64,000 nucleotides of DNA, taken from the NCBI GenBank assembly GCA_020137815.1, contig CM035350.1, positions 5,952,001 through 6,016,000 of the forward strand, given 5' to 3'. The notes beneath the pieces were generated by a model. The model searched no databases and had not been told where the DNA came from. It saw only the letters and a list, made by a program, of their open reading frames with translations. Within the stretch, counting starts at the first letter, position 1. Each line of letters opens with the position of its first letter. Source of the stretch: Hormiphora californensis. Its lineage: Eukaryota; Animalia; Ctenophora. A program made the translations under genes and the position numbers. Positions 805 to 54,205 of the stretch are shown here, one piece after another.

Positions 805-1277
805 TATTTGGCTCTCGGGATCCCGATTGAGCACTGTTGAGTGTTGGTGGGAAGTGAACAAGTCGTGTGTATATCGGTATAAATGGTGAAATTGTCAAGA
901 AGTTTAAATTTGAAAAGCTGGGGTAAACAAAATATGGTTCCTTCAATTAGTCAAATTGGTTAGAAATCCTCTACGTTTTGCCTTGCTAAACCTTAGCTTG
1001 TACGTTTACCTATGGCATGATAGGTAGGCCGTCTATATCATATCTACGAATGTATACACGGGTTACTTTTGATGGGGTAAATCTAGTCTGCATGACACTG
1101 TATACCAAATTTCAGACCGATTAGTGCAGTGGGGGCCTCACTATGGGCGTTACGAAATGCCATTTTTGGCTAAAAACTGAAAAGTTATTAGTGCTTTCTG
1201 GCATACACGGCTGGCGGATGGTCACCTTTGCGCTTGTCAGCGCAGTGATTTAAAGAATTTATTATTTCCCCTGTTAA

Positions 1278-1727
1278 AGGTTGACAAGATACCTAAAACT
1301 TTTCGTATATCGTCTTATTTTGATTTATCATTAATTTTCAGCATTTTTTCAGAATTTTTTGTCGGCTAGAAAAAAATTCGAAATAGGGGGTCTACCGATA
1401 TTGTCAGCACTGGTTTTACTGGGCACACTCACTGCGTCTCGCAAATTGAAATTCACGTTTCCGGTTCCTCAAAAGATAAAGACTTGATCTTGGTTGCGTT
1501 GGATTGGTCTCAATAAGACCTTTCCAACGCTACCAAAACGGTTTCTGTATCTCATCAGGAACCGGAGATATTACGTTATCAATTTTAAAAAAGGCACACT
1601 CATTTGTCAGTAGACCCCCTATTTTGCACATATTTCTAGCCGACAAAAAATTCTGAAAAAATGCTGAAAATTAATGATAAATCAAAATAAGACGATATAC
1701 GAAAAGTTTTAGGTATCTTGTCAACCT
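1278..1727. mobile_element. Kolobok-type MITE
   Basis: About 95-bp TIRs with AGG...CCT termini and TTAA TSD (1274-1277, 1728-1731). The right TSD ends 3 nt before the ATG of Rho copy 1. Confidence 0.8.
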
Positions 1728-1734
1728 TTAAGCG

Positions 1735-2328
1735 ATGTCCGACGTTGTAGACACCCATGACCCAAAATGGCGTACTATGATACGTCTAAAGTTTGTTGCA
1801 GTTGGTTCCCGTGCCGTGGGAAAGACCTGTATGCTGATTCGCTACTTCAGAAAGGGTAAACTTCCCGATCCCGAGATACACCTCCCCAGATTATATGATG
1901 GCCAAGACAGGCAAGTGGAGTATGATGGTAAAATGTACGATGTGCTATGTTCGGATACGTCCGGTGAAACAGAGTATGAAAATAGACTACGATCTGAGCT
2001 GTCTGACCCTGATGCATTTCTGCTACTGAATGATGTGAATGATAAAAACTTCGAAGATGTTGCAACTTTCTGGTGGGAAGAGTTGAAGCGTTTCTGTCCT
2101 GGAGTTCCTGTGATTTTGGTGGGTTCAAAGGTGGACTTGAGGGATGAGAACAGCGTGAGTTTTGAGGAGGGTCGTCAGATGGCAAAAAAGATCGGAGCAG
2201 CGTGCTATATGGAGTGTTCGTCTAAAGATGACATCGGAGTTACAGAAGTCTTTGAAAAAGCAGTTAAATTAAGTGTTAAGAGAGGATATCGAAATTCTGT
2301 CAAGAACAAAAAGAAAGATACAGAATAG
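1735..2328 (+). CDS. Atypical Rho-family GTPase, copy 1 (intronless, no CAAX)
   Basis: GSRAVGKT P-loop, DTSGE switch II, SKVD G4, ECSSK G5; ends KKKDTE. Confidence 0.85.
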   Translation: MSDVVDTHDPKWRTMIRLKFVAVGSRAVGKTCMLIRYFRKGKLPDPEIHLPRLYDGQDRQVEYDGKMYDVLCSDTSGETEYENRLRSELSDPDAFLLLNDVNDKNFEDVATFWWEELKRFCPGVPVILVGSKVDLRDENSVSFEEGRQMAKKIGAACYMECSSKDDIGVTEVFEKAVKLSVKRGYRNSVKNKKKDTE

Positions 2329-2543
2329 TATTTTGTTTTAAACATTTGAAGTTAATAAACATGATTACCGAAAACGGGTTTCCTACTTTTTATTTTTTCG
2401 AAACGATGTTTGTATTGAATATTAAATATTGATTATTTATTACATATATGTTTGGACTTTGGCTGATTATATGTGCCTTTTGTTCTCCAATCCACACCAG
2501 TCCCCAGCTTCGTTCAGTGTTCTACCACATGAAACACTTATTC

Positions 2544-3166
2544 GGCACTGCCAGGAAAGCCCGACCACTAACAAAAGCACTGGCAAAACCATAAACAAAA
2601 ACACTAACAAAAACACTAACAATTCTTATGAGGTAGATGAAGTGATACAATTCTAGGGCTATAGGCATACTGATCACGATCAGTATGCTTATAGCCTAAG
2701 GCGCCTTATTAGCACTGTGAAACAATACGGAGTATAAAACATGCGATTTGGGGAACCTTATTAGCAGTCTGAGATGATACGAGATTTGGAACATGATTCC
2801 GCGAGGCCTATGAGGAATGTTAGACGATATGAGACACGATTCGGGGAAGGTTGCCCTCTCTTTCCCTCCATATTCATCCCCTTGGTGGCGCAGTCACCTT
2901 ACAACGAGTTGTTTTGTCTCAAAACCCGAATCGTGTCTCATATCGTCTAACATTCCTAATAGGCCTCCCCGAATCACGTTCCAAATCTCGTATCATCTCA
3001 GACTGCTAATAAGGTTACCGAATCTCATGTTTTATATCCTGTATTGTCTCACAGTGCTAAATTAAATTTTTAGTGGTTTTGTTAGTGGTTTTGTAAGTAG
3101 TTTTGTTAGTAGTTTTATTAGTGCTTTTTGTCTTTTAGTTAGTGGTCGGGCTTTCCTAATAGTGCC
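2544..3166. mobile_element. MITE-like element (possibly Merlin-type) with internal roughly 50-bp inverted sub-repeats
   Basis: ggcactgccaggaaagcccgaccactaac pairs with gttagtggtcgggctttcctaatagtgcc; flanks acttattc/acttaatc. The internal repeat unit recurs at 46200-47200. Confidence 0.5.
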
Positions 3167-3196
3167 ACTTAATCCAATTTATCACCAATACAAGCA

Positions 3197-3775
3197 ATGT
3201 CTGTAGATGAATTTAACCCAAAATGGCCTTCTCTAAAGTTTGTTGCAGTTGGTCACGGTGCCATGGGAAAGACCTCTATGCTGATTCGCTACTACAGAAA
3301 GGAATTTCCCGAATATACTCCAACTGTCTTTGATGCCGAAACTAAACCCGTGGAGTATGGTGGTCAAATGTACAATGTGGGTTGTTTCGATACGGGTGGC
3401 GGAGAAGACTATGCTAGGCTACGACCTCTGTGTTATCCTGAAACCGATGCATTTCTGCTACTGAATTCTGTGAATTATAAAGACGATTTTGAAGATATTG
3501 CAACTTATTGGTGGCCAGAGTTGAAGCATCACTGTCCTGGAGTTCCTGTGATTTTGGTGGGTTCAAAGGTGGACTTGAGGGATGAGAATAGTGTGAGTTT
3601 TGAGGAAGGTCGTCAGATGGCAAAAAAGATTAAAGCAGCGTGCTACATGGAGTGTTCTTCAAAAGAGGATATTGGGGTTACGGAAGTTTTTCAAGAAGCG
3701 ATTAGACTGGGTGGTGAATACCTAGCTACCAAAAAGAACAAAAAGAACAAAAAGAAAAGATGTAATTTACTTTAA
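3197..3775 (+). CDS. Atypical Rho/Rac-family GTPase, copy 2
   Basis: GHGAMGKT, YTPTVFD, DTGGGEDYARLRPLCYP, polybasic tail plus CNLL CAAX. Confidence 0.92.
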   Translation: MSVDEFNPKWPSLKFVAVGHGAMGKTSMLIRYYRKEFPEYTPTVFDAETKPVEYGGQMYNVGCFDTGGGEDYARLRPLCYPETDAFLLLNSVNYKDDFEDIATYWWPELKHHCPGVPVILVGSKVDLRDENSVSFEEGRQMAKKIKAACYMECSSKEDIGVTEVFQEAIRLGGEYLATKKNKKNKKKRCNLL

Positions 3776-4367
3776 AACCTCTGAAGTTTTTTCCCTGTAA
3801 CTCTTTTTTTGGAAGTTGAAAATACGTAAAAATGGGTATTTCTATGTTTTAAGATTTATATTGGATGCATGTATGTACTTATATGTATATCCCAGTGCGG
3901 TAAGGCGTAGCGTTACTTGCCTTGTTCGACCCTCCTTCCCCTCGCCCCGTGTTACATGCGGCTTGGGAAGATGTTATCAAGTAAATCTGTTGGTATGTAT
4001 CTTCAATGAGCGAATTATTGTTTATTTGAGTGAGAGATTTTAAATTTATTTATTACCAACCCCAACACCGGGGGCAAATGATCGAACCCAATGTGTATGA
4101 GACTCACTGCGATTAACTCTACACATAGTTACCCCCTTTCTCTCTTCGGCAGCTTCTCCTCGGCTGTTGAAAAGTGATGCCAATCGATGTTGGGGTTCGT
4201 GAAAAAAATGAAAAGATTCAATGAGCGTTCCCTATCTAGCAGTTTTTAAGCATAATATAACAATTTTGTACAATTTGCAGCCTGTTTGACTCTTTGAAAC
4301 TGTTTGTGTCTAATCTGTTTGGTTTTTCTTTCTATGAATGAAAGTCTTTTCGTAGGATCGATAAAAT

Positions 4368-4938
4368 ATGACTGGTAATGATGATTCAACCGTGGTTAAG
4401 ATTGTCCTTCTTGGTCACTACACTATGGGAAAGCACTCCCTTCTTTATAGATTCTGTCACGATACCTTCAACTCAGAGACATGTGGTGTCGAGGAAATAA
4501 AAATAAAAAACATTGTGTGTAACGGTGAAAAGTTTCGTATTCAATTTTTAAAGCCGATTGGTGGTGAGCGATTTCATACCATCAGGCATTGCTATTATCC
4601 GGGGAGCTGGTGCCATACTTGTTTTAGCTGACATAACTGACTTCGGGAACTTCAGGGACGCTGAGAAATATTGGTGGCCTGAACTCCAGCAGTATGCTCC
4701 TGAAGTTCCTGTGATTTTGGTGGGTTCAAAGGTGGACTTGAGGGATGAGAACAGTGTGAGTTTTGAGGAGGGTCGTCAGATGGCAGAAAGGATCGGAGCA
4801 GCTTGCTATATGGAGTGTTCGGCTCTTACTGGAGAGGGGGTGAATGAAATTTTGGATCACGCCATGGAAATTCGAAATATTCCACCAACTACCAACAGAG
4901 AAGCAGTAAAGTCAAGGAAAAGATGCTTAATTTTGTAA
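4368..4938 (+). pseudogene. Divergent Rho-family GTPase, copy 3, with a +1 frameshift in a G run near 4601-4604 (pseudogene or assembly error)
   Basis: ORFs 4368-4631 and 4558-4938 join as ..YYPGAGAILVL.. if one G is removed from ccggggag; CLIL CAAX intact. Confidence 0.75.
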
Positions 4939-5140
4939 AGATTTTTTTATAGTTTTTGGGATTGCATCTACAAAATATTCTATTCAACCTTTTTTTCGTG
5001 CTAAAATTTCTCTAGGACGAATAGTTTCTGGCATCAGAGCAGTTGCATAAAATTAATACCCTTTTTTTAAAAACATTTTAAGCTTTTAAAACAAATTTTT
5101 TTTCATCATTTCATTTTTTGTACAGAATAGGCACTGACAT

Positions 5141-5698
5141 ATGGCTGTGCCAAAACCCAGGATAAAAATTGTACTGGTTGGCCAAACGGGATGTGGTCAA
5201 ACAAGTCTTCTTCATCGACTGTATGGCGCCCCTTTTCCACCTACCGGCACTCCAACCATTTTTGATATCCGTTCTAGAATTTGGACCGGGAAAGATGGTC
5301 AGAAAGTTTGGTGGGCTGCTTGGGACACATCTAGTAGTGGTAATGATAAACTCCGGCCACTCTGCTATCCAGAAACAACAGTTTTTCTTATTGTTGTGAA
5401 CATTTCTGAACCAAAAGAGCTATATATATCTATTGCTAAATCAAGGTGGAGAAATGAACTGAAGCATCATTGTCCTGATGTTCCTGTGATTTTGGTGGGT
5501 TCAAAGGTGGACTTGAGGGATGAAAACAGTTTTAGTTTTGAGGAAGGTCGTCAGATGGCAGAAAGGATCGGAGCAGCGTGCTATATAGAGTGTTCAGCTC
5601 TTACTGGAAAGGGCGTGAATGAGGTTTTTGTTCAAGGTGTCGAACTATCGATTTTTCATCTTAACAATTTACATCGGAAGAAATGCATTGTTTTATAA
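5141..5698 (+). CDS. Highly divergent Rho-family GTPase, copy 4 (P-loop K to Q)
   Basis: GQTGCGQTS, PTIFD, WDTSSSG, KLRPLCYP, CIVL CAAX. Confidence 0.85.
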   Translation: MAVPKPRIKIVLVGQTGCGQTSLLHRLYGAPFPPTGTPTIFDIRSRIWTGKDGQKVWWAAWDTSSSGNDKLRPLCYPETTVFLIVVNISEPKELYISIAKSRWRNELKHHCPDVPVILVGSKVDLRDENSFSFEEGRQMAERIGAACYIECSALTGKGVNEVFVQGVELSIFHLNNLHRKKCIVL

Positions 5699-5995
5699 AT
5701 ATGCTTTTGTAAATACTGAGTTAATTTTAATTATGATTTTGTTTATTATCAATTTTTGTTCAAATACATAAAAAATGCAGATTTTCCCCCTAAGATGTGT
5801 CAGACCCCAAATTTGTAATGCCGCAGCCCACACCAACAGAATTTAGATACTAACTGGCCATATCCCTTGGCTTGCTTGACCCTCTATCCCCCCTCTATAT
5901 AACCTCTTCAAAATCGTATGCTGGCCTAAAAATTACCTTTCAACTTTTTCTTTGTTAGGTAATGTAAACCCTGTATATCCAATATTCCACTAGCG

Positions 5996-6583
5996 ATGGT
6001 AAATCATCATGTTAATGATGTTTGGAATCCAGATTGGCCAGCTCTTAAATTTGTTGCAGTTGGTTCCGGTGCTATGGGTAAAACGTGTATGCTGATTCGC
6101 TACTTCAGAAAGGAATTTCCCGAGAAATACATCCCCACGGTCTATGATAACCACAATACCCACGTGGCGGGGTGTGATGGTAAAATGTACAACATGTCAT
6201 GTTGGGATACGGGCGGTGGAGAAGACTATCACGTGTTACGTCCTCTTTCATATCCCGACACCCATGCGTTTCTGTTACTTAATTCTGTTGAGTACAAAGA
6301 CCAATTAGAATCTATTGAAACTTATTGGTGGCCAGAGTTGAAGCATCATTGTCCTGGAGTTCCTGTGATTTTGGTGGGTTCAAAGGTGGACTTGAGGGAT
6401 GAAAAAAGTTCGAGTTTTGAGGAAGGTCGTCAGATGGCAAAAAAGATTAAAGCAGCGTGCTATATGGAGTGTTCTTCAAAAGAGAATATTGGAGTTACCG
6501 AAGTTTTTCAAGAAGCAATTAGACTGGGTGCCGAATACCAAGCTACCAAAAAGAACAAAAAGAAAAGGTGTAATTTACTTTAA
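5996..6583 (+). CDS. Atypical Rho/Rac-family GTPase, copy 5
   Basis: GSGAMGKT, YIPTVYDN, WDTGGGEDY, CNLL. Confidence 0.92.
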   Translation: MVNHHVNDVWNPDWPALKFVAVGSGAMGKTCMLIRYFRKEFPEKYIPTVYDNHNTHVAGCDGKMYNMSCWDTGGGEDYHVLRPLSYPDTHAFLLLNSVEYKDQLESIETYWWPELKHHCPGVPVILVGSKVDLRDEKSSSFEEGRQMAKKIKAACYMECSSKENIGVTEVFQEAIRLGAEYQATKKNKKKRCNLL

Positions 6584-6634
6584 ACCATTTATTTTATTAT
6601 TATTTGAAGTTAAAGAATAATGGGTTTTGTTACA

Positions 6635-6991
6635 GCTTTTTGGCCTAAAAACGGTAATTGGCGCTGAAAAAAATCGAGAAAAACCATTCCGCCATAGGGG
6701 TGGCGGAATGGTTTTTCTCCAAAATTTGCTCGATTTTTTTTCAGCACCAATTACCGTTTTTAGGCCAAAAAGTCAATGTTTTTATTGTTTGAGGTATGGG
6801 TTTTCGAATTTTGGCGGAGCGAGAGCGAAGTCCAGATAATTTTGAATTTTGAAGTTTTGACAAATGAAAAACAAGTGGTTTTTTTTTTCAAACAATTGTT
6901 TCACTACCAGCGGTAGATCATCAGACTGATGATCTACCGCTGGTAGTGAAACAATTGTTTAGGAAAAAAAAACCACTTGTTTTTCATTTGT
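6635..6991. repeat. Two long hairpins (about 6635-6772 and 6860-6991), probably non-autonomous DNA element(s)
   Basis: ttttggcctaaaaacggtaattgg pairs with ccaattaccgtttttaggccaaaa; aaacaattgtttcactaccagcggtagatcatcag pairs with its reverse complement around a very short loop. Confidence 0.7.
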
Positions 6992-7308
6992 TTTCTGCTC
7001 TCGGTCCTGGATTGATTGAGCTCTCTCGTGTGATTCGAATACTCACTTTGAAGTTTTGAAGTTTTGATTGAAATTTTGGCCAAAATTTCAGCCCCCACCC
7101 CCTGTTCCTCCACCCCTGCGTTGATAACTTTTTCGAAACGATTTGCGATAAAAATGATAGCTTATTATGTGTCCAAGTGTGAAATTGTTTGTATGACCGG
7201 CCCTGATGACAAACTTGTTTAACTTTACCGTACACAAGTATCCTTGGTAAATTTCCTAATAACTATTTATGCATTTATTTAAAGACATCTTTCTTCCACT
7301 AGAAAGCG

Positions 7309-7887
7309 ATGGATGAAGATGAGTTTAATCCAGATTGGCCTACTCTGAAATTTATTGCAGTTGGACGTGGTGCGATGGGTAAAACCTGTATGCTGATTCG
7401 CTACTTTAAAAATGAATTCCCTGAGATATACGTCCCCACTGTTTATGATAACACTATAAAACATGTGGAGTGTGATGGTAAAATGTACAATGTGACATGT
7501 TGGGATACGGGTGGTGGAGAAGACTATGATAGGCTACGACCTCTGTCTTATCCTGACACAGATGTATTTCTGCTACTGAGTGCTGTGAATTATAAAGACG
7601 AGTTTGAAGATATTGAAACTTATTGGTGGCCAGAGTTGAGGCATCATTGTCCTGAAGTTCCTGTGATTTTGGTGGGTTCAAAGGTGGACTTGAGGGATGA
7701 GAACAGTTTGAGTTTTGAGGAGGGTCGTAAGATGGCAGAAAGGATTAAAGCAGCCTGCTATATGGAGTGTTCGTCAAAAGATGACATTGGAGTTACCGAG
7801 GTTTTTCAAGAAGCAATTAGATTCGGCGCTGAATACCAAGCTACCAAAAAGAACAAAAAGAAAAAGAAAGGATGTTGTTTACTATAA
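7309..7887 (+). CDS. Atypical Rho/Rac-family GTPase, copy 6
   Basis: GRGAMGKT, YVPTVYDN, WDTGGGEDYDRLRPLSYP, GCCLL. Confidence 0.93.
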   Translation: MDEDEFNPDWPTLKFIAVGRGAMGKTCMLIRYFKNEFPEIYVPTVYDNTIKHVECDGKMYNVTCWDTGGGEDYDRLRPLSYPDTDVFLLLSAVNYKDEFEDIETYWWPELRHHCPEVPVILVGSKVDLRDENSLSFEEGRKMAERIKAACYMECSSKDDIGVTEVFQEAIRFGAEYQATKKNKKKKKGCCLL

Positions 7888-8000
7888 ATCTTTTTTATTG
7901 GTCTTTGTTAACTTTTTCGGAACGATTTGCGATAAAAATGATAGCTTTGTGTCCAAGTGTTTTGAAATTTTTGTATGGCCGGCTCTAGTGACAAACTTGT

Positions 8001-8688
8001 GTGAAACCCGATAGTTGATTTATCAGTCGTTTGAACATTTTACGCGCACACGTTAACTGCGAGATGGGGGATTTAACACCCTGCTCGCTCTTTATCAGAC
8101 CAGTGCCCATTTTCACGCGTTTCTCTTCATTTCCATAACATGCGTGTAAATTTCCAAGTAATGAAAATGTGTGTAAACACACAGTTCTGTCAATAACAGA
8201 GAGGGGAACACATCTGCAACACTTTTCAATGTTATCTCTCTCATCAAGAGGCAAAATAGTCGCATTCCATTCGTTTCTCTCTCTCATTCTCTCTTTTACT
8301 GTTCAATATCTCTCACTGTGTGTTTTGCCCCTAATCTTTCTCTCTCTTTCTCAAACATGTTAGGAACAGTAGACACTAAGTCTACACACATTTTGAGAGT
8401 GTCTGTTGACTATTTGCCAGTAGTCCTTGTGTGTTACCCCTTGTGTTGTGTCTCTTATTTGTGTGTAATTACTATCGGGTTTCATAAACTATGAACGTTT
8501 GTTAGCCTATCGCGTTATAGGTTTAAATCACCTCCCCCTCACCCTCGGCTGGCGCCTCGGGATCGGCGTCGGGATTTAAACCAGTTTAATCGCCCTGCCG
8601 GGCGATTAAACTCCAGTTGGCTGTCCCCAGCTCGCGCTGGGAACAGCCAACTTGATAACGTGCCAGTCTACAAACGTTCATAGTTCAT
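8001..8688. mobile_element. TSD-less non-autonomous element with asymmetric inverted repeat and terminal cloverleaf
   Basis: The empty site caaacttgtttaacttctgtctggc is seen in the paralogous spacer at 11191-11215. IR tgaaacccgatagt (8002-8015) / actatcgggtttca (8471-8484). Three-hairpin cloverleaf at 8487-8686. Confidence 0.75.
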
Positions 8689-8804
8689 TTAACTTCTGTC
8701 TGGCAGCGCCAGATACCGTCTTGATTCTCAATCAGTGCGCTCAAATTGGGTCTGCGGCGCCAGACAGTACCGTTCATAAGTATTTCTGGTAAATTTGCTA
8801 ACTA

Positions 8805-9970
8805 CAGAGAGGCGTGTATGGTGAAGTGCAGGGCGAGTTATTTGACCTGGTACGGGACCTGTTTACACATGCTGGTATCAAGGATTCCTTCCCGAAGAGT
8901 TTGACTGCCGGACGTAGTGTGTGGGATAGCCTGAAGTGTCCGAGCAAGAGTAAGATCAAGGGGATAAAGAAGCCAGAACTAGAGGATTTCACAGAGAAAG
9001 TGTGCCGTTTCCTGATGGAGAGGTGTTACCCGTTGCTCGACCGTCTGAGTACTGAAGTTGAAGACAATGAGAGGAAACTACTGGATAGTCAAGAGGAACT
9101 GATTGTTTCTCAGCGAGCATTGGTTGAGGCACAGGGGCAGCTGGTTAAATTGCAGTGTGAGTTGTTAGGGAAGCGAGATAAGGAGATTACTGCTGTGCAG
9201 TCTATTGCTGAAGAGGAGATAAAGACGTTTTCCTCAGTTCTGAAAAAGAGTTGTGACAGTGCTCTAGCTCCGAAACGTATTCGTACTGCAATAACGAGTG
9301 CTACAGAGGACAGGACAAGTAACGTGATTGTCCATGGACTATTTGATGATCCCAGTGAAAGTAGTAAAGATCTGGAACATTCAGTTTGTGGAGTTTTCGA
9401 CTACATGGGTGAATGTGTGACTAGTGTTTACAGCATGACGCGTCTCGGAAGGTACAAGGAGGGTACTGACCGACCTGTTAAACTGCGCCTGTCTGGCCGT
9501 GAATTTCGAGATCTGATCCTGTCCCACAAAAGTGGTCTGAAGAAGTCGGATAGGTACAAAGATCTGTACATCTCCCCGGACCGTTCCCCGGAAGAGAGAG
9601 AGGAGAGGAGGAAGTTGGTGGCTGAGCTGAAGGAGAGGAAGGCGGCGGCACCAGGCAAGACCTTTGGGATAAGAGGAGGCAAGGTTATGGAGGTGGTGGT
9701 GTGAGGGCGTGAACGTGAGCGTATTGAACTGTGTTGTTTATGTTTGTGTTTATGATTTTGACTAGGTTTTGTTACTGGACTTTGAGCATCTGAGCACCGG
9801 ACTTTTTACTAGATGGACATTTTTTGTTTCTATAGTTTATCTAGAGTTTTAGGTTTTATATACAGAGGTGAACCGCTCTGAAGCTCCGTAGTACTAGTGT
9901 TTTTTGGATTCTGGTACCCTACGGGGTCTGAGCGTGTATATAAATTCTGTTATTATTATTATTATTATTA
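8805..9970 (+). mobile_element. Non-LTR-like retroposon carrying only a LINE ORF1-like coding region (ORF 8814-9704), with a (TAT)n tail
   Basis: Coiled coil followed by RTSNVIVHGL..RLG...RPVKL..LYISPDRSPEEREERRKL, typical of CR1/Jockey-group ORF1. TAACTA TSD at 8799-8804 and 9971-9976. No RT present. Confidence 0.75.
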
Positions 9971-9998
9971 TAACTATTTGTGCCTCTTTCTTCCACTA

Positions 9999-10251
9999 GG
10001 GGAAACTCTAACTGAATGCCCGCACAGTAATGGCGTCCCATCACTGGTAAAACTCTAATTTAATGGACGGAATGATGGAAGAATGCGCGACCATGCTCGT
10101 GTGTTTGTCATCGCGCCCTACGTAACAGCCTTTTTTTGGCAAAATTTGTGGCAAATCCTGACGCGCACAGAGTGATGACTCCCATTATCAGTTAGATTTT
10201 TACCAGTGATGTGACGCCATTACTGCGCAGGCATTCAGTTAGAGTTTCCCC
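9999..10251. mobile_element. PIF/Harbinger-like MITE
   Basis: About 70-bp imperfect TIRs GGGGAAACTC...GAGTTTCCCC with a 3-bp CTA TSD. The empty site ccactagaaagcgATG precedes copies 6 and 8. Confidence 0.8.
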
Positions 10252-10261
10252 CTAGAAAGCG

Positions 10262-10906
10262 ATGGATGAGGATGAGTTATATCCAGCGTATAATCCAGAT
10301 TGGCCTACTCTGAAATTTGTTGCAGTTGGATATGGTGCGATGGGTAAAACCTGTATGCTGATTCGCTACTGTAAAAATGAATTCCCTGTTTATGAATTTC
10401 CTGTTTATGATAACAGTATAAAACATGTGGAGTGTGATGGTAAAATGTACAATGTGACATGTTGGGATACGGGTGGTGGAGAAGACTATGATAGGCTACG
10501 ACCTCTGTCTTATCCTGACACCGATGTATTTCTGCTACTGAGTGCTGTGAATTATAAAGACAAGTTTGAAGATATTGCAACTTATTGGTGGCCAGAGTTG
10601 AAGCATCACTGTCCTGATGTTCCTGTGATTTTGGTGGGTTCAATGGTGGACTTGAGGAATGAGAACAGTTTTAGTTTTGATGAGGGTCGTCAGATGGCAG
10701 AAAGGATCGGAGCAGCGTGCTATATGGAGTGTTCGTCTAAAGATGACATTGGAGTCACCGAGGTTTTTCAAGAAGCAATTAGACTGGGTGGCGAATATCA
10801 AGCGATAAAAAAGAACAAAAAGAAAAAGAAAGGATGTTATTTACTAAAGGTCCCCCCAAACTACTATGTCCCTTGCTGCGCGCGACCGGATTTTAGACGG
10901 CCATAG
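10262..10906 (+). CDS. Rho-family GTPase, copy 7; stop codon displaced by a MITE, probably decaying
   Basis: Near-identical to copy 6, but switch I is YEFPVYD, G4 is SMVD, and CYLL is read through into 19 MITE-encoded residues. Confidence 0.75.
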   Translation: MDEDELYPAYNPDWPTLKFVAVGYGAMGKTCMLIRYCKNEFPVYEFPVYDNSIKHVECDGKMYNVTCWDTGGGEDYDRLRPLSYPDTDVFLLLSAVNYKDKFEDIATYWWPELKHHCPDVPVILVGSMVDLRNENSFSFDEGRQMAERIGAACYMECSSKDDIGVTEVFQEAIRLGGEYQAIKKNKKKKKGCYLLKVPPNYYVPCCARPDFRRP

Positions 10907-11074
10907 CTCCACCCCCTGATAAGATAGAGACTTGAAATTTGTTTTGTAGGGAGATCATATCGAGTTCTTCGTACAGAACAAATTTCAAGCTTCTATCTCA
11001 TCAGGGAGTGGAGTTATGACCGTGGGAAATTTCACAAAACCCGAGTGAGGGACATAGTAGTTTGGGGTGTACTT
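10847..11074. mobile_element. MITE inserted immediately before the stop codon of Rho copy 7
   Basis: TIR ccccaaactactatgtccct / agggacatagtagtttgggg with a TA duplication. The original TAA and 3' flank resume at 11077, matching 7885 onward. Confidence 0.8.
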
Positions 11075-11350
11075 TATAAATCTTTTTTATTGGTCTTTGT
11101 TAACTTTTTCGGAACGATTTGTGATCAAAATTATAGCTTTGTGTCCAAGTGTTGTGAAATTTTTGTATGGCCGGCTCTAGCCTCTAGTGACAAACTTGTT
11201 TAACTTCTGTCTGGCAGCGCCAGATACCGTCTTGATTCTCAATCAGTGCGCTCAAATGGGGTCTGCGGCGCCAGACAGTACCGTATTACATATGTATTTC
11301 TGGTAAATTTTTCTAGCTATTTAAAGACATCTTTCTTCCACTAGAAAGCG

Positions 11351-11944
11351 ATGGATGAGGATGCGTTATATCCAGCGTGTAATCCAGATTGGCCTATTCT
11401 GAAATTTATTGCAGTTGGACGTGGTGCGATGGGTAAAACCTGTATGCTGATTCGCTACTTTAAAAATGAATTCCCCGAGATATATTGCCCTACCGTTTTC
11501 GAAAATAATCTTAAACATGTAGAGTGTGATGGTGGAATGTATAACATATCATGTTGGGATACGGGCGGTGGTGGAGAAGACTATGATAGGCTACGACCTC
11601 TGTCTTATCCTGAAACCGATGCATTTCTGCTACTGAGTGCTGTGAATTGTAAAGACGAGTTTGAAAATATTGAATCTTATTGGTGGCCAGAGTTGAAGCA
11701 TCATTGTCCTGATGTTCCTGTGATTTTGGTGGGTTCAAAGGTGGACTTGAGGGATGAGAACAGTGTGAGTTTTGAGGAAGGTCGTCAGATGGCAGAAAGG
11801 ATCGGAGCAGCGTGCTACATGGAGTGTTCTTCAAAAGAGAATATTGGAGTCACCGAAGTTTTTCAAGAAGCGATTAGACTGGTTGGCGATTACCAAGCTA
11901 CCAAAAAGAACAAAAAGAAAAAGTTGAAATGTAACCTTTTATAA
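11351..11944 (+). CDS. Atypical Rho/Rac-family GTPase, copy 8
   Basis: GRGAMGKT, YCPTVFEN, WDTGGGGEDY, CNLL. Confidence 0.92.
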   Translation: MDEDALYPACNPDWPILKFIAVGRGAMGKTCMLIRYFKNEFPEIYCPTVFENNLKHVECDGGMYNISCWDTGGGGEDYDRLRPLSYPETDAFLLLSAVNCKDEFENIESYWWPELKHHCPDVPVILVGSKVDLRDENSVSFEEGRQMAERIGAACYMECSSKENIGVTEVFQEAIRLVGDYQATKKNKKKKLKCNLL

Positions 11945-12171
11945 AACCTTTTAAATAAAGAAATAAGTTTTTTTTAAGTAAAGAAATAAGTTTGTTAAAA
12001 ATATATTTGTTCGTGTGTCTTTTGTAAAGAATATTTTCTACCTGAAATGTTATTTTTAATCGTCTAGTTAGCGAATTTATCCCGAACAGCAGTGGAGCTC
12101 CACTTTCGCCTGATTCCATGTTTCATTTAAACTTCGCTTCTGCATTCTTTCAGCACATACAGGAGAACGAA

Positions 12172-12729
12172 ATGATATCGGATATCAAGACGATTTTTGT
12201 TGGTCATTGCAACATGGGGAAAACATCTCTTTTACTTCGATACCATTTGGGCACATTCCCCGACGAAAGAAACTCTATTTCGTTTGATAATTGTAAGCCA
12301 TCTCAGTTGAATGTCAAGGGGGAGACTGTTAATCTGGGGTGTTTTGATACTAGTGGTGGGGAGGATTATGAATCTCTTCGTCCATTGTCTTACCCGCAAA
12401 CTGATGTTTTTGTTCTTTTAGCAGCTATCGACAACTTAGAAAATTTAAAAGATACAGAAGAGTATTGGTGGCCAGAGTTGAAGCATCATTGTCCTGATGT
12501 TCCTGTGATTTTGGTGGGTTCAAAGGTGGACTTGAGGGATGAGAACAGTGTGAGTTTTGAAGAGGGTCGTCATATGGCAGAAAAGATCGGAGCAGCCTGC
12601 TATATGGAGTGTTCAGCTCTTAACGGAGAGGGGGTGAATGAGGTTTTCCAGAAAACTGCAGAAGTGGGCCTTGAGTACTTTTCAAATCTGCCAAAACCAA
12701 CGAAGAGAAAGCACTGCACAATTCTTTGA
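12172..12729 (+). CDS. Divergent Rho-family GTPase, copy 9
   Basis: GHCNMGKTS, DTSGGEDYESLRPLSYP, CTIL. The ATG at 12172 aligns with the paralogue starts better than 12118. Confidence 0.88.
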   Translation: MISDIKTIFVGHCNMGKTSLLLRYHLGTFPDERNSISFDNCKPSQLNVKGETVNLGCFDTSGGEDYESLRPLSYPQTDVFVLLAAIDNLENLKDTEEYWWPELKHHCPDVPVILVGSKVDLRDENSVSFEEGRHMAEKIGAACYMECSALNGEGVNEVFQKTAEVGLEYFSNLPKPTKRKHCTIL

Positions 12730-13608
12730 TTCTTTCTTGTAAAAACAAAGCAATCGTTTGTTAATCAAGTAACAATTGTTTGTGCCTAATATGCCTCATC
12801 TTGCCTAGCTAGACTCTGTTTCGCGGAGGGTTAGAACATAACAAGCCTTACCGTAAACTTTCTTAGTTAGCGGTATGTCTTCTGAACCAGGGGACTCGAC
12901 ACGGTTTTGCATCCTTGGCACACAGGCAAAACAACTCTCTGCTTAAGGGTACACCTGGCGTTTTTCATCATCGAGTGCCCAACCAAATGACTTCACCAGG
13001 GTTTAGGCCATACAAAATGGACCTCAAATATGCAATTTTAGCCCTAAATTCGAATTCATATTTTTGCTACAGCCTATTTTCAAAGTGGCGTTTTTTCAAA
13101 TTTTGTTGGATTTTTTAACCTCAGGACCACTTTTTTTGAGATAGAAACATTAAATTCTTGGAATTTGAAGAGAATGTAAAGGTGAATAAGCCCAAAGAAG
13201 GATTTTTGAAATGGAGCTTATTTCTGGCCATGAGAACGGTTTACTTTTTTGCTTCTTTGACACGCTGGCTGAGAATGTTCCCATGCTTCATTAGAGATGA
13301 AAATCTGGAAATAGTTGCTCAAAACGATTATCTATGTGGCCCAAAAATTTTGGAACTTTCCCGCCAAAGATGTGGTGTACAGAGCTTGTTTTGTGAAACC
13401 CGTCTTTTTGAAAAAGAGGGGAATTCTCTGTATCTCAAAAACGGATGATCGTAGAGACCTGCGACCAAGCTTAATCGATTCAGAAGGTCCGATTTTGGGG
13501 GAGTCTTCTGAGAGACATTTTGCTCCTACTCCAACCGTTTTTGCTGTAATTGCGAAAAAGGTATCAGCAAGTAAGGGGGAAATCAGCCCGAAGCAGGCTA
13601 CTGGAATA

Positions 13609-14179
13609 TTTTGTAGCTCACGTCCCCACGATCGCCCTGTCTGTACTCTCACAAAATGTATTGTCTGTCCTTTGATCACCAGTGACAAGTATGATTGCAG
13701 AATAAAGGGTGTTGTATATAGAGTTAAGTGCGAGCTATGCCAAGAGTTCTATGTGGGTGAGACCGCACGCCCAATACATGACCGGATGCTAGAACATCGG
13801 CGGGCGGCGATCAACCCCACATCAACATCATACCAGAACAATGCATTTGCGACACACTATAAAGAGACACACGAGGGTAGTACCCCTATTTTAAGTTTGG
13901 AAATACTGAAATCGAATCTTTCGAGAACTATACAGAGAAAGATTAGTGAAGCTGATTTCATACAACAACTGAAACCTACTCTGAACAACAAGAAAGAGTG
14001 TGAGAGTGCTCTAGGCTTCCTAGTCAGTAATAGTTGATAAGTCCTAGAGTACTCGTCATAGCTCTGTGTATAGTACAATCTGAATTTATGTATATCTGAT
14101 CCGATGTGAGAATGAGTGAGAGAGAGGGGGAGAGAGTGAGAGATAGAGTTTGTGAGTTGAGTAGAGAGAGTAAGTGAGA

Positions 14180-14261
<82 letters not shown>

Positions 14262-14491
14262 TATAGAGAGTGAGAGTGAGAGAGATAGAGAGTACGTGAT
14301 TGTTTTGATATGAATTTCGATTTTGATTCCTATTCCTAATATGTTCTATTTTTAGCTACTACTGATGATGGTGTTAAACACCGAAATATCTGGTTTCATC
14401 CAATAATATCCAGCGAGTCTAACTTGTCCAATAAACACAAGAACTATTATCAATCATGAGACTCAAGAATAGTCAAGCGCTACATTATTTG
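13609..14491 (+). mobile_element. 5'-truncated Penelope-like retroelement (GIY-YIG endonuclease end plus 3' region)
   Basis: GVVYRVKCELCQEFYVGETARPIHDRMLEH...RKISEA.FIQQLKPTLN; 10-bp TSD TACTGGAATA at 13599-13608 and 14492-14501. Confidence 0.85.
14358..14394 (+). ncRNA. Minimal type I hammerhead ribozyme motif of the Penelope-like element
   Basis: acta-CTGATGA-t-ggtgt/taa/acacc-GAA-ATAT-C-tggt: core boxes, stem II, short palindromic stem III and 4-bp stem I. Confidence 0.6.
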
Positions 14492-15987
14492 TACTGGAAT
14501 AGAGTTGTTCCCCCTTTTCATAGAATTGGTTTTTTGCAATTACAGCAAAAACGGTTGGAGTAGGAGCAAAATGTCTCTCAGAAGACCCCCCCAAAATCGG
14601 ACCTTCTGAATCGATTAAGCCTGGTCACAGGCCTCTACGATCATCCGTTTTTGAGATACAGGGAATTTCCCTCTTTTTCAAAAAGACGGGTTTCACAAAA
14701 CAAGCTCTGTACACCACATCTTTGGCGGGAAAGTTCCAAAATTTTTGGGCCACATAGATAATCGTTTTGAGCAACTATTTCCAGATTTTCATCTCTAATG
14801 AAGCATGGGAACATTCTCAGCCAGCGTGTCAAAGAAGCAAAAAAGTAAACCGTTCTCATGGCCAGAAATAAGCTCCATTTCAAAAATCCTTCTTTGGGCT
14901 TATATTCACCTTTACATTCTCTTCAAATTCCAAGAATTTAATGTTTCTATCTCAAAAAAAGTGGTCCTGAGGTTAAAAAATCCAACAAAATTTGAAAAAA
15001 CGCCACTTTGAAAATAGGCTGTAGCAAAAATATGAATTCGACTTTAGGGCTAAAATTGCATATTTGTGGTCCATTTTGTATGGCCTAAACCCTGGTGAAG
15101 TCATTTGGTTGGGCACTCGATGATGAAAAACGCCAGGTGTACCCTTAACCCTCGCTAACGAAGCACCACCAAATCCGGAGTACCTGCCCGCTGTTTTCTC
15201 TACAAACAATCATGTAATTGTCAAAGACATGCCTTTAGAATTTCTTGATGTTAGCGCTCTACGCTGGGATCGAATCGCCGAGGAACGTCCTATCTATTTA
15301 CCGTTCGTGTTGGACAAGGCGAGACTTGCAGTCATAACATTCTGCGTTACAGATACTTTATCATATAGGAGTGATGTCAAGAAGATGGTGGATGCTGTTA
15401 GGACTCACAAGCCCCGGGAATGGATTCCTATTGTCCTGGTTGCTACCAAAACAGATCTTCGCGGCAAAGGTTGTGATACAGTCTCTGAGATTCAGGGTCG
15501 GTCATTGAGTCGGAAAGTGGGAGCACGGGCGTATTTTGAAGTTTCGGTTGTTGATGGTGGTGTACCTGCCGTTCAACACTTGTTTGAACAAGTCGTTGAG
15601 ATATTAGAAGAATCTAACAGTGTGAGATATCATGGTGGTCGTCGGTGCTGTGTGTTATAACATGTGTGTGTACCTCGCAGTGGGTGTCTGGGATTGTTTT
15701 TGTTTCGGGATGAAAATAGCTTTTAAGTGCGAATGCATCACACACACACATTATCCCACACGGCGATCTCCCACCGGTTGTTTCTAATGTAAACACACAC
15801 ACCAAATCAACCAGACACATGTGTGAATGATCTGTAGTGAAATGCGAATTCATACCAAGCCAATAATGTTTTTTAATCCCCAAAAGTTTATAGTTATACC
15901 ACGAAGAATTATCCCCTTTTAACTCAAACACATAAACTCTTGTCGAACAAGGCAAATAAACTCTATCTTTTTACATATAGCTGCAGA

Positions 15988-16959
15988 ATGGCAAACTTGA
16001 AGTGTGTTTGTGTGGGTGATGGAGCAGTGGGTAAAACTTGTCTTCTCATCTCGTACGCTCAGGATCGCTTCCCTACCGAATACATTCCCACTATATTTGA
16101 CACTTACACCAAGATTCTATCTATGGATGAGGAGGGGATTGGAATTGTAAATCTCAATCTGTGGGATACTGCTGGTGAGCTTATCATCTTTAAAGAGTTT
16201 TGTAGTTTACTGAAAATAGGGTGACATAAAGTCCTCCGTGAGTAAAAAGCGTGTTTGTCCGTGGAGTAGTTTCGACTTTCGAGATTCGTAATTCACTTTC
16301 GGGTTTTGTGTCCGTCTGATGTGATGTAATGCAGTTACCCTTTAACAATGATTTCATACAGGACAGGAGGAATTCAGTACCCAGAGATCGTACGCCTACC
16401 CTGGTACAGATGTGATTCTTATCTGCTTTGCAGTGAACTCTCGGGCCAGTTACAATAACGTCAAAAGCCAGTGGGAAAAAGAGGTACATTATACATGAGA
16501 TGGTTAATTGTATCGATAACATTGAATTTCTTCCAGAGTACATTTTGATTAATGAAACTTCAAAGAAACTAAATTCAGAACAACCCAACATTGTTTTGCA
16601 GGTGAAGAGTTTTGCACCGAGCACACCATTTATTCTGGTGGGGTTGCAGTGTGATAGGAGGGAGAGCGAGGCTGAGAATACTCTTATTTCAATTGCGGAA
16701 GGGTACTCCCTTCAGCAACAGGTGGGTTAATCAGCAGGGTGATTTAGAAGTTTTTGTTGAACCTAGTATCTTTTTTATTCTAACGACTCTGTTTCCATAT
16801 ATCTAAGATATTGTGTTATTCTTCTAGATCGGGGCTCTCAAGTATGCAGAGGTTTCATCACTCAAGATGATTGGAGTGGAGGCACTGTTCAGAGATGCAA
16901 TAATTGCAGCTGTTAAGGGACCGGAAGAGAAAAAGAAGTCATGTTGTACACTCTTGTAA
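15988..16959 (+). CDS. Rac/Cdc42-like GTPase, copy 11 (exons 15988-16174, 16362-16483, 16602-16721, 16828-16959)
   Basis: [20 protein letters not shown]^QEEF, CTLL; GT-AG introns keep the frame. Confidence 0.88.
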
Positions 16960-17350: not shown

Positions 17351-19140
17351 ATGGCGGAGAGACAAGTGAAATGCGTTGTCGTGGGGGATGGCAATGTTGG
17401 TAAGCACTTTGTTTTGATTTTTTGATTGTTTGTTTGATTGTTTGTTTGATTGTTTGTTTGATTGTTTGTTTGATTGTTTGTTTGTTTGCATGTTTGTTTG
17501 TTTGTTTGTTTGTTTGTTTGTTTGTTTGTTTGTTTGTTTGTTTGTTTGTTTGTTTGTTTGTTTGTTTGTTTGTTTGTTTGTTTGTTTGTTTGTTTGTTTG
17601 TGTGTTTGTTTTTCATGTAGTATGTCCTACTAACCATGCAATTATTCCTTTGTCACTGTGAGTGTCATTGGAAGAAAGTACACACAGTGCTGCTTGTAGT
17701 CGTATTACCGTAATGAAAATACAGTAAGAAGACGCGCACGTTGCATAACACGCGGCAAAAAGTGCATGTGTTCAGCACGTACTAGCGCCCTGATTGGTCA
17801 CGGTTGCGTGTCGTCTTACTGTATCTCGGTTTTCCATTACCGTTTTCCCACTACAAGCGACCGTGACAGACTCATGTTACAACTGTGTGAGGATTATGTG
17901 TTACTTGCAGCAGGTACATAGTACCAGTAGCTACATAGTACCACATAATACCACGTAGCTAATACTAATAGCTATTACAGTACCAGTATTACCATTAACT
18001 ATAGTAGTACCGTTACTACCAATAGTACCATGATACCAGTACGAGTCCGACCTGCCACTCTCATTCCATGTTCTAACAACCCCCCCCCCCCATTATAAGG
18101 TAAAACATGCATGCTGATATCATACTGCACGGACGCCTTCCCGGGAGAATACCGACCCACTATATTTGATAACTACACCACCACTGTCAAGTTCCAGGGA
18201 GCCAACGTCAAATTGGACCTATGGGATACCGCTGGTGAGCGATAACTTGTTACGTTTATTGTGTATGTAATCCGACCTGATAACGCCTGTTTGTGAACTG
18301 TGTGCGTCATTAAACAGGACTAGTAACATATCAACTTGTTATTGCATCAAGTACCCCATATAGCAGGCAAACTAGACTTGTTATGTTCTAACATAGTCTA
18401 GCTAGGCAGGTAGTTGAGTAGCAATAACCATCCATGTTTCTAACTACCTTGTAACTTGTTGAGTAACCACTCATCAACTTGTAACAGGACAAGCGGAGTA
18501 CGATCGGTTACGGCCCCGAAGCTACCCTGAATCGGATGTGTTTCTTATTATCTACTCGATCAGTTCACAAGCTAGCTATAACAATGTTCGCCTAAAGTGG
18601 AACATAGAGGTATAACTATGATAATACGGATACCCAATACCCAGCAATGTGCAGCTGAAATCTCGATACAGCTCTAGAAGCTTCTACTACGTATGATTTC
18701 AAACCCAAAAACCTGCGTTTTAGCTGAAACAATATTTCACCGCACAGGTTGCCCACCACTGTCCCGGAGTGCCCGTTATTCTGGTTGCCGCTAAGAAAGA
18801 TTTGAGGAACTCAGACCCAGAATGTATCTCAACACGGGACGGCCAAGACCTTGCTAAAGAGGTACGTGTTGCCATGGGAACCCCTCACTCTTTCATTCTT
18901 CCTCCGAATCATAATATATCATCACCTCCATTACACAAGTTAACAGGTATACCTGCTTGTTTGGGTACAGCTATAATAATTATGAACCCATGTCCCATTT
19001 CTTTTCAGATAAGAGCTACCACGTTTATGGAGTGTTCCGCCCTCACATCTGATGGACTAGCTGAGGTGTTTCTCAAGGCCATCGATGTCGTCATTAATCC
19101 GGTGAAAAAGGAGAAGAAGAGCACGTGCAGATTGCTGTGA
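17351..19140 (+). CDS. Rac-like GTPase, copy 12 (exons 17351-17399, 18100-18234, 18488-18609, 18748-18861, 19009-19140)
   Basis: [22 protein letters not shown]^[19 protein letters not shown]; three intron positions shared with copy 11. Confidence 0.9.
17420..17600. repeat. (TTTG)n microsatellite in an intron
   Basis: Direct tetranucleotide run. Confidence 0.95.
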
Positions 19141-19973: not shown

Positions 19974-23218
<3,245 letters not shown>

Positions 23219-32821: not shown

Positions 32822-35293
32822 CTAACTACACTCCATGGCTTCACACAGTGGAAATTCTGTAAACTTGTCGCTATACTGGTCTGAATCCTTGACAATCAGC
32901 GGAGCCTCATCATATTCATCAAAATTAGCGGTGTCTCCAGGGCTCTCTAACTCCGGGATAAAGGGTGCCTTGATCTTCTGCTCGAAAATATCTGACATAT
33001 TTAACCGCCTGAAATACGTACTATTAGCCAATGTTCCGTACTATAATAAGTCAATACTCCGTACTATGTATTAGTCAAGGTTCTGGTCTATCTATAAGTA
33101 TCTCCTTGAAATGCGCTAAATGGCTAAGAAAAAACAGAATTGGCTTACTTGAAGAAGTTGTGTTCAGCAATTTCCTTGGGCCCAAGCCGGAGATTTCCGA
33201 CTCGCTTGGTGGGGTCGGTAACTAACAGAGATCTAATAAGCTCCTTGCAATCCTTTGTTAGCTTGCACGAGAACCGTACCTTCGCTTCTAACGCCTGGGA
33301 TACATAGTTGTAGAGATATCTATCAAGATTGAAATACAAAAAGCAAAACAAACACAGATTTTGATGTTAATACGCATTTAAACAAAATGAATCACTTCCA
33401 GAATTAATTTATCCTACAATGTTGGGCAATTTTTTTCTTTTTTCCTACAAGACCACATTAGTTTGCTACCACACCAAAGCCTAGGACAGTGGAAAATATG
33501 AAGAGAATGATTTATTAGTATTCATAGCGGTGGGGACTAGGAAAGATCTTTTCGTCAGTCCTTTCCAATCAGCGTGGCCAACTTTTGGAACGTAGGGTGC
33601 CTTCACTCGCATAGATAGTAGTGATTTCCAAGGAACTTTAGAGAAAAAACGGTGCTTTTTGATATCAAAAGGACCACCACATAGATTTCCGAGCCGTTTT
33701 GTAGGGTTTGGTTGAAGAAGCTGCTGCATGAGATCGCGTGCGTCTTCAGAAACGTAGTCAGGAAACTCAATATCCACCTCCAATCCCTGCAAGAATCGGT
33801 TTTAGCAATTTGGGTCAGTTCAGGAAATCCGAAATGCATTAATTCAAAGTTCAAACCTCAAGATTAGCTTCCAGCGCCTTGGACAGTTTCCTTGGAAGCG
33901 ATGTTGGATTTGATTCCTCGTCCACAACTCCAATGTTCTCGCTGGACCGCTTTGAGATGCCGATGTCCTTGACATTTTCATCGGTGTAGAATCGTGATCG
34001 GTTGAAACGTACTCCTCGTTGTATCATCCTCATCTCGTGTCGTCGCTGTAACCATTCCTGGGCTGGCTGTAAGCACTACTGACAAAACACGACCACTAAC
34101 TTACCTGTTTATAGATTTCCATTGGATTCTCTGAGTAAAAGGGAGGGTGTCCACAGACCATCTCGAAGATCAGCACACCAAACGCCCACCAGTCAACTGC
34201 TCGATGGTACCTGTTCGGATATAATATGAATGTGAAAATAAGAACTGAATTTCGGGAAAATATAGTACTAAAACTGCATGTATCATTACTCACCCTTGAC
34301 AAAGAATAATTTCAGGGGCCAAGTACTCTGGTGTTCCACACAGAGTGAATGTCCTTCCTAAGCAGCGCTTTGCAAACCCAAAATCAGTGATCTTCAGATA
34401 GCCGTTTGCAGCAAATAGGATGTTTTCAGGCTTGAGGTCACGGTAGAGAATGTCCAGATTGTGAAGGTACGCCAGGGCAGACATGACCTGAAATATATGT
34501 GGTGTGGAGAGGATGAAGTGATAGATCTTATTGATTTGATTTGAAAAATATTAACTAATAAAAGCATGTTCACACAATAATGATTTAATTTAATGAAAAT
34601 AATATGACCACCCCCGAACCCTTCCCCTTGTCAGTAGTCTGTGTCAGTATGGGACTGGGCAACAACTTTTAAGTTTCAAACATTCCTAACACAACTCCAA
34701 ACCCATCAACGACTATTATCATGCTCAACCTCAAGAACATATGGATTACTATAAGTTGTATGTATTATACCTGTGCCCCGTAAAAAGATGCCGTTATCTC
34801 GGGAATCCGGCCGACGCTTCTTAACAAGGAGAAGAGTTCCCCGCCCGCAACAAACTCAAACACCATGTACAGGTATGCGTTATCTTGCCCAAACTGTAAG
34901 AGGTTAACAAGGAACTCCATCGGTGGGATAGTAGCCATAACTTTGTACTCTGAGTATGTGTGGTCCAGCTGGGGGAGGGGTTAGTGTTAGTGATCGAAAA
35001 AACCATCAGCGCTTAGAATAGCATACCTGGTCTTTCTCTATAATGCAGTCTTTGCTCAAACACTTGACTGCCATAAAGTCCTCGCATCCCTTTTTGTTAC
35101 AGACCATCACCCTTCCAAATGATCCCGTTCCGACAGTTTTAAGCAACTCATGGTCAACCACATCAAAGTAAGGGACGAGCTGTTCATTTTTAGCCTTTAA
35201 CTCCCATTTGCTTTCAAAAGATTCCTTTGTACTTTTGAAGAAAGCCTTTATCTGATCGTCTTCAGAACCAGTGCTTGTGACAACATTACCCAT
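32822..35293 (-). CDS. PKA-C: cAMP-dependent protein kinase catalytic subunit-like, with two alternative C-terminal exon sets
   Basis: MGN start, [68 protein letters not shown]. Confidence 0.9.

Positions 35294-49040: not shown

Positions 49041-54205
<5,165 letters not shown>

Follow-up and report, generated by a model that had tools for sequence, protein, structure and literature searches.

A tandem array of atypical Rho GTPases without glutamine 61 in the ctenophore Hormiphora californensis

The window analyzed here is a stretch of 64,000 nucleotides from the ctenophore Hormiphora californensis (NCBI GenBank assembly GCA_020137815.1, contig CM035350.1, positions 5,952,001 to 6,016,000 of the forward strand). 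Between positions 1735 and 15660 it carries, on the plus strand, ten small-GTPase copies without coding introns, which are followed by two intron-containing genes, A and B. None of the ten copies encodes glutamine at position 61 (residue numbers are those of Rac). The array belongs to a real and conserved, apparently undescribed family of atypical Rho GTPases, and glycine 61 is a conserved trait of this family, which is shared with the comb jellies Bolinopsis and Mnemiopsis. The array is under birth-and-death evolution and not in general decay, and its four intact copies are under purifying selection. With a probability of about 60%, slow hydrolysis and easy GDP release would make the encoded proteins GTP-loaded, prenylated switches controlled by expression and location, as far as this can be judged from sequence.

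The array copies and their family

All ten copies are matched by the Pfam Ras domain (PF00071). Copies 2, 5, 6, and 8 are intact, copies 4 and 9 are open but divergent, and copies 1, 3, 7, and 10 are broken:

1735..2328, plus strand: copy 1, damaged (G12R, T35R, glutamate at position 61, no CAAX motif)
3197..3775, plus strand: copy 2, intact core member with DTGGGEDY and the CAAX motif CNLL
4368..4938, plus strand: copy 3, Rab-like front half and family back half, with an apparent frameshift near 4599 (real or an assembly error)
5141..5698, plus strand: copy 4, open frame, very divergent (G12T, K16Q, DTSSS), CAAX motif CIVL
5996..6583, plus strand: copy 5, intact core member, CAAX motif CNLL
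7309..7887, plus strand: copy 6, intact core member, CAAX motif CCLL, modelled G domain without insert helix
10262..10906, plus strand: copy 7, damaged (switch I shorter by one residue, K116M)
11351..11944, plus strand: copy 8, intact core member with DTGGGGEDY and the CAAX motif CNLL
12118..12729, plus strand: copy 9, open frame, very divergent (divergent switch I, G12C, DTSGG), CAAX motif CTIL
12875..15660, plus strand: copy 10, pseudogene with a 5′ piece at 12875-12946 and a 3′ piece from 15145

The four intact copies all keep G12, K16, Y32, T35, and the CAAX motif. A polybasic tail with a terminal CAAX motif is found in copies 2, 4, 5, 6, 8, and 9 and, past their breaks, also in copies 3 and 10, and is lost in copies 1 and 7. 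Owing to an insertion from about position 10847, copy 7 lacks its stop codon, and its CAAX motif is no longer terminal. Copy 9 likely starts at position 12172. A 2.2-kb inverted-repeat element interrupts copy 10, whose second lesion is a frameshift in the P-loop; the copy lacks the G4-G5 tract shared by the others and is distant from the family. An exact look-up of seven proteins of the window in a protein collection gave no match.

Many proteins with the motif DT[GA]GGEDY were found when copy 6 or an alignment of 35 sequences served as the query. Named family members are five proteins of Bolinopsis microptera and one of Mnemiopsis leidyi, and the NCBI labels of family members read merely 'Rac1-like' or 'Cdc42 homolog'. 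From 359 stored proteins, 90 were assigned to the family by a length of 150-260 amino acids and a family profile score more than 25 bits above that of the canonical profile; counts over this set are partly circular, as the profile was built from proteins without Q61 and near-duplicates are included. Position 61 is occupied by glycine in 78 of these proteins, by alanine in 6, by histidine and leucine in 2 each, by glutamate and arginine in one each, and by glutamine in none. Other residues are kept as follows: K116 and D118 in all 90, W97 in 87, K16 in 86, Y32 in 79, T35 in 73, and G12 in 68, with a CAAX motif in 84. D11 is kept in just 4 and N92 in one. An earlier note on this DNA had suggested, as one option, pseudo-GTPases, a term understood here as proteins without nucleotide binding; at best, copies 3, 4, and 10 could be of this kind, given the retention of K116, D118, and K16 among the relatives.

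The same note had reported the absence of Q61 from all ten copies, which is correct (0/10), as are the motifs DTSGE (copy 1), DTGGG (copies 2, 5, 6, and 7), KPIGG (copy 3), DTSSS (copy 4), DTSGG (copy 9), and DVSAL (copy 10), while copy 8 reads DTGGGG. The substitutions it listed are likewise present (G12R, T35R, and Q61E in copy 1, G12C in copy 9, G12Y and T17H in copy 3, K16Q in copy 4, to which G12T is to be added), and genes A and B both retain DTAGQ in a motif that spans an intron. Its term 'intronless' applies to the coding region and not beyond it, where an acceptor-like AG precedes every ATG. Residue 59 is glycine in the core copies and serine in copies 1, 4, and 9, and A59 is found in only 10 of the 90 relatives. 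G12 is retained in all five DTGGG copies, and the odd changes at G12, K16, T17, and T35 are confined to the broken copies or to the divergent copies 4 and 9. Glycine 61 is not a matter of chance, because it is encoded by three different glycine codons within the window and is kept across most of the family with no glutamine at all. The E61 codon of copy 1 is one base away from the family glycine codon; this residue is therefore not derived from glutamine, and its likeness to the deamidation product is coincidental.

In a quick tree of 110 rows, from which copy 10 was left out, 52 rows without Q61 fall on one side of a branch with a Shimodaira-Hasegawa-like approximate likelihood ratio (SH-aLRT) support of 98; one protein labelled as lacking Q61 in this tree, P0166, carries DTAGQ. 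A more careful tree of 47 rows was built after removal of columns 11, 59-61, and 92 and of the insert region, with copies 1, 3, 4, 7, and 10 left out. Here, the family is represented by 25 rows, which cluster in one clade (support 95/92) that includes the Bolinopsis and Mnemiopsis proteins, and genes A and B as well as six G61 proteins lie outside it. Neither tree held a named Rnd, RhoH, RhoBTB, or RhoU sequence. Ten independent losses of Q61 were rejected on the basis of the two trees. Together with the selection values of the intact pairs given below, the trees bear out the proposal of an independently evolved, Rho-derived family without Q61 that is not explained by simple pseudogene decay.

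The six outsiders (P0190, P0201, P0268, P0278, P0284, and P0304) are Rho proteins with DT[GA]GGEDY, of which P0278 has BTB domains; five of the six keep a long insert region. Since they fall outside the clade once the trait columns are removed, G61 either recurs or is older than the family.

Furthermore, six relatives have a longest contig of 41,701 bp in common and five Bolinopsis relatives one of 26,206,493 bp, and such sharing suggests that arrays may occur elsewhere too. Two family domains in one model were seen in P0333 (a Mnemiopsis leidyi model) and P0173, which probably reflects an annotation that joined two neighbouring array genes. A metagenome scan of 80 loci gave one family member, L001, which has no coding introns but an in-frame stop. 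A viral origin was rejected: five viral loci were found, and the three with a readable Rho G3 motif all keep DTAGQ.

In the six pairwise comparisons of copies 2, 5, 6, and 8, the ratio of non-synonymous to synonymous substitution rates (dN/dS, Nei-Gojobori) is 0.24-0.36 with bootstrap upper limits of 0.39-0.61, values that gene conversion can bias. A ratio near 1, which had been named as a sign of pseudogenization, is thus found in none of the six intact pairs. The front half of copy 1 reaches 0.82-1.04 against copies 2, 5, and 6, and that of copy 7 0.80-0.86 with wide limits. As the private changes of copy 7 comprise three non-synonymous and four synonymous ones, its damage looks recent. Compared with copy 6, the ratio is 0.40 for copy 9 and 0.54 for copy 4.

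Gene conversion and the Rab-fronted copy 3

Copies 1-9 share a tract of about 150 bp (from YWWPEL to MECS) that is nearly identical among them, while its flanks approach saturation in copies 3, 4, and 9:

4669..4821, plus strand: homogenized G4-G5 tract in copy 3, the same tract being present in copies 1-9
about 11678-11830 and 12463-12615: the same tract in copies 8 and 9, respectively

Between copies 8 and 9, third codon positions agree at 45 of 51 sites inside the tract, at 32 of 92 before it, and at 4 of 19 after it. The clustering of silent-site identity exceeded 300 of 300 shuffles in all nine array pairs tested (of 36 possible), and a control with gene B gave p = 0.56. The identity does not stem from protein constraint, because it extends to silent sites; the G4-G5 tract is homogenized by gene conversion. 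Assembly collapse is an unlikely cause, as the copies differ inside the tract (82-100% identity to copy 8 across windows of the tract). A tail swap between P0024 and P0316, in which 149 of 149 front residues are identical and the tails differ, is possibly a short-read chimera and was not relied on.

Copy 3 combines this tract with an unusual front. A Rab-type front would span the P-loop to β4 and show the switch II pattern ERF..I...YYR. For its first 77 residues, only Rab-family proteins are found among the best 60 of 137 PDB matches, and all six front segments match Rabs best, whereas all five back segments match Rho groups best. Its relatives P0240, P0300, and P0339 have an ERFHT-type switch II with G61, the family back half, and a CAAX motif; their fronts are of mixed rather than pure Rab character, and P0300 over its whole length matches Rac1 best. 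In all, 14 stored proteins carry the motif of these Rab-fronted members, whose ends are a single CAAX motif and not the CC or CXC type. In half-trees of 39 rows, the four Rab-fronted rows join the Rabs in front (99) and the family behind (93). By the approximately unbiased (AU) test, a Rab grouping of the back halves is rejected for the four rows (p = 0.0027) but not for copy 3 alone (p = 0.27), and a family grouping of the front halves is not rejected (p = 0.18). The lineage of copy 3 is thus likely a Rab/Rho hybrid by origin, judging from these comparisons, with convergence as a possible alternative. If the former is true, the Rab-fronted members are a rare natural hybrid of two branches of the Ras superfamily. 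The front of copy 4 is narrowly best matched by RhoD and Rnd.

Predicted GTP loading and competing explanations

The structural model of copy 6 (predicted local distance difference test score, pLDDT, of 88.5) comprises a complete G domain, whose nearest folds are RhoA and Rac1, without the insert helix; the top sequence and fold matches are RhoA/B/C, Rac1, and Cdc42. With these proteins copy 6 and its family share about 45-50% identity, a template modelling (TM) score of about 0.8, the switch II sequence RLRPLSYP, the polybasic tail, and the CAAX motif, but the family differs in lacking Q61, A59, D11, N92, and the Rho insert. N92 is invariant in 55 of 56 canonical relatives. The spacing between D118 and G142 is 12 residues in all nine aligned copies and 12-17 in 43 relatives, compared to 24 in insert-bearing Rho proteins. 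The insert between G4 and G5, which is also missing from genes A and B, is described as defining for the Rho family (PMC7600811).

Rnd, RhoH, and RhoBTB are rendered GTPase-deficient by substitutions at positions 12, 59, and 61 (PMC9029563), and the array core carries two of the three (59 and 61). In RAC3, the effect of A59G on hydrolysis is a weak to moderate suppression and that of Q61L a strong one (PMC9473360). The missing glutamine in cis, together with A59G, would therefore be expected to slow hydrolysis. A hydrogen bond between D11 and W97 sets the stability and GDP affinity of Rac1 (PMC6685717); of these two residues the family retains only W97, and loss of this bond, which stabilizes GDP-bound Rac1, may allow easy GDP release. 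The polybasic tail and the CAAX motif would direct prenylation and membrane location, and the conserved switch I/II core would still bind effectors of the Rho/Rac type. Control would then lie in expression, location, and turnover, as for Rnd proteins, and gene conversion of the central tract within the birth-and-death array may let front halves and tails be exchanged, including one lineage with a Rab-like front.

Several points, besides the circularity of the family counts mentioned above, weigh against this proposal. G12 is intact in the core, unlike in Rnd, and the literature searched gave no rate of GTP hydrolysis for a Rho protein with Q61G. For Ras, the variants Q61G and A59G have been characterized as transient-intermediate conformers (PMC8848853; as intermediates, PMC11364392), which need not signal. 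The D11 argument derives from N92I and W97A mutants rather than from substitutions of D11 itself (PMC6685717), and the family may have compensated for the loss of D11. Rap1 lacks Q61 and is nevertheless switched off by its GTPase-activating protein (GAP) (PMC2265111). Finally, effector positions 37-40 vary among the copies of the window.

In having a Rho-type G domain with changed residues 59 and 61 and predicted GTP loading, the family resembles Rnd1-3, RhoH, and RhoBTB (PMC9029563). It is unlike them in that the array core keeps G12, uses G59 and G61, lacks the insert and D11, and occurs in multi-copy tandem arrays. On sequence grounds the family likely works like Rnd and RhoH, although two class features, the G12 change and the insert, are absent. 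No Rnd or RhoH was among the best 60 solved-structure matches to copy 6. For Mnemiopsis, the table of a review has no entry under Rnd, RhoU, or RhoBTB but only MlRho and MlCdc42, with Rac seemingly lacking, and Rnd is thought there to have arisen before the divergence of cnidarians (PMC7600811). If the family is indeed GTP-loaded, the very early-branching ctenophores would have reached 'always-on' Rho signaling separately, via G59 and G61 and the loss of D11 and the insert. The family is a natural test of the effect of Q61G in a Rho protein. No description of the family was found in the literature searched, a search that left most subscription papers and supplements outside. The array architecture itself is not new: the Mnemiopsis photoprotein clusters, which encode an unrelated protein, are also ctenophore single-exon tandem arrays for which concerted or birth-and-death evolution has been discussed (PMC3570280).

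A first alternative, which seems rather unlikely, is that the proteins are ordinary two-state switches with a private GAP, in which G61 makes room for a catalytic asparagine or glutamine provided in trans. The conserved G12, T35, Y32, G60, E62, and Y64 fit this, as does the fixation of position 61 at a small residue instead of free variation. Rap1, where Q61 is naturally absent from an otherwise intact G domain, is served by RapGAP with an Asn thumb and a conserved tyrosine (PMC2265111). However, Rap1 is a Ras-branch protein with T61 and a known GAP, and no GAP is known for the array family, for which no search aimed at one was made; the joint loss of N92, D11, and the insert also speaks against this alternative.

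It is unlikely that the array forms a modular, GTP-locked repertoire, in which the tract serves as a recombination anchor for swapping effector-binding fronts and membrane tails between paralogues, a Rab front was captured to give a Rab/Rho hybrid that persists across samples, the products act as decoys or sensors for pathogen enzymes attacking Rho and Rab switches, and a trans-spliced operon is possible.

Y32, T35, and Q61 are residues modified by bacterial Rho toxins (IbpA, VopS, TcdA/B, and CNF1). That the array is a defence repertoire of decoys or toxin-resistant variants shaped by such enzymes is still less likely. The tandem arrangement, rapid turnover, segment exchange, and very divergent fronts resemble immune gene families, and an intact T35 and Y32 on a GTP-loaded protein would suit a bait. 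The variability at toxin-target residues claimed in the earlier note is not borne out. It was assessed in 43 family proteins at the 58 positions where 95% or more of 56 canonical relatives have the same residue, and positions 32, 35, 39, and 61 showed no significant excess of variability over the remaining 54 (Mann-Whitney p = 0.099, a comparison of low power with its four sites). Within this set, Y32, T35, and N39 lie at the 70th-80th percentile of variability, but the neighbouring F37 varies more and position 61 is fixed at glycine. Y32 is kept in 86% and T35 in 79% of the 43 database relatives, and both are kept in all four intact core copies. In addition, no intact pair has a dN/dS near or above 1, the altered residues cluster in broken or divergent copies, and loss of Q61 mimics, rather than blocks, activation by deamidation. 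The array thus likely encodes 'mostly on' switches rather than toxin-dodging variants.

Simple pseudogene decay of retrocopies, for which the four broken copies out of ten, the elements in or beside copies 1, 7, and 10, and the front dN/dS of copy 1 near 1 might speak, is highly improbable and refuted for the family as a whole by the low ratios of the intact pairs, by flanks shared among copies, which point to duplication at the DNA level, and by the G61 motif, which two named species and many other records also carry in open frames that have a CAAX motif.

Upstream regions, elements, and neighbouring genes

An acceptor-like AG lies 2-18 nucleotides upstream of the ATG in all 12 genes. The mean acceptor score is 14.1, compared to 8.8 for 647 other ATGs, and was reached in none of 100,000 resamples, in a test where the copies are not independent and the start of copy 9 was chosen after looking. 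In run X1, a 745-nucleotide spliced contig of a gene A relative (window positions 15988-16175) continues into exon-2-like sequence and has 20 non-matching letters ahead of its ATG. A spliced leader or an intron in the 5′ untranslated region would both fit these sites and letters. Trans-splicing occurs in ctenophores, and no operons had been reported as of the paper describing it (PMC7986045). The observations give hints of spliced-leader trans-splicing, possibly of a polycistronic array. The same run yielded eight short pieces on the array, of which seven are less than 90% alike and none lies on copy 10; they are evidence neither for nor against expression.

Two elements flank or interrupt array copies, and another one is inserted in the 5′ acceptor-like site of copy 7:

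1270..1733, unstranded: inverted-repeat element whose two ends carry TTAA and which has landed in the acceptor-like site ahead of the copy 1 ATG
12943..15148, unstranded: TTAA-flanked element with inverted arms of about 620 bp, which splits copy 10

The GG...CC ends of the latter presumably recall Kolobok transposons. It contains an open frame at 13621-14035 (plus strand), which we take to resemble the endonuclease end (GIY-YIG type) of a Penelope-like element. The interval from copy 6 to copy 7 holds an open reading frame (ORF) of 229 amino acids at 9015-9704 (plus strand); it has no Pfam match and is presumably a retroelement ORF1.

The intron-containing genes downstream of the array lie outside the family and could represent diverged genes of the Rac side, in a lineage reported to be without Rac:

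15988..16959, plus strand: gene A, four coding exons, DTAGQ, no Rho insert, with a spliced relative in run X1
17351..19140, plus strand: gene B, five coding exons, DTAGQ, no Rho insert

Gene A has a degenerate G4 motif (LQCD). Further downstream, 30-bp tandem repeats at 20662-21742 are open on both strands (338 and 346 amino acids), and the following features were found:

35006-35293, minus strand: kinase exon (weak match)
36716-38524: reverse-transcriptase ORF
43415-44215: single-exon gene of the EI24 family
50014-53958: WW and HECT exons of a ubiquitin ligase

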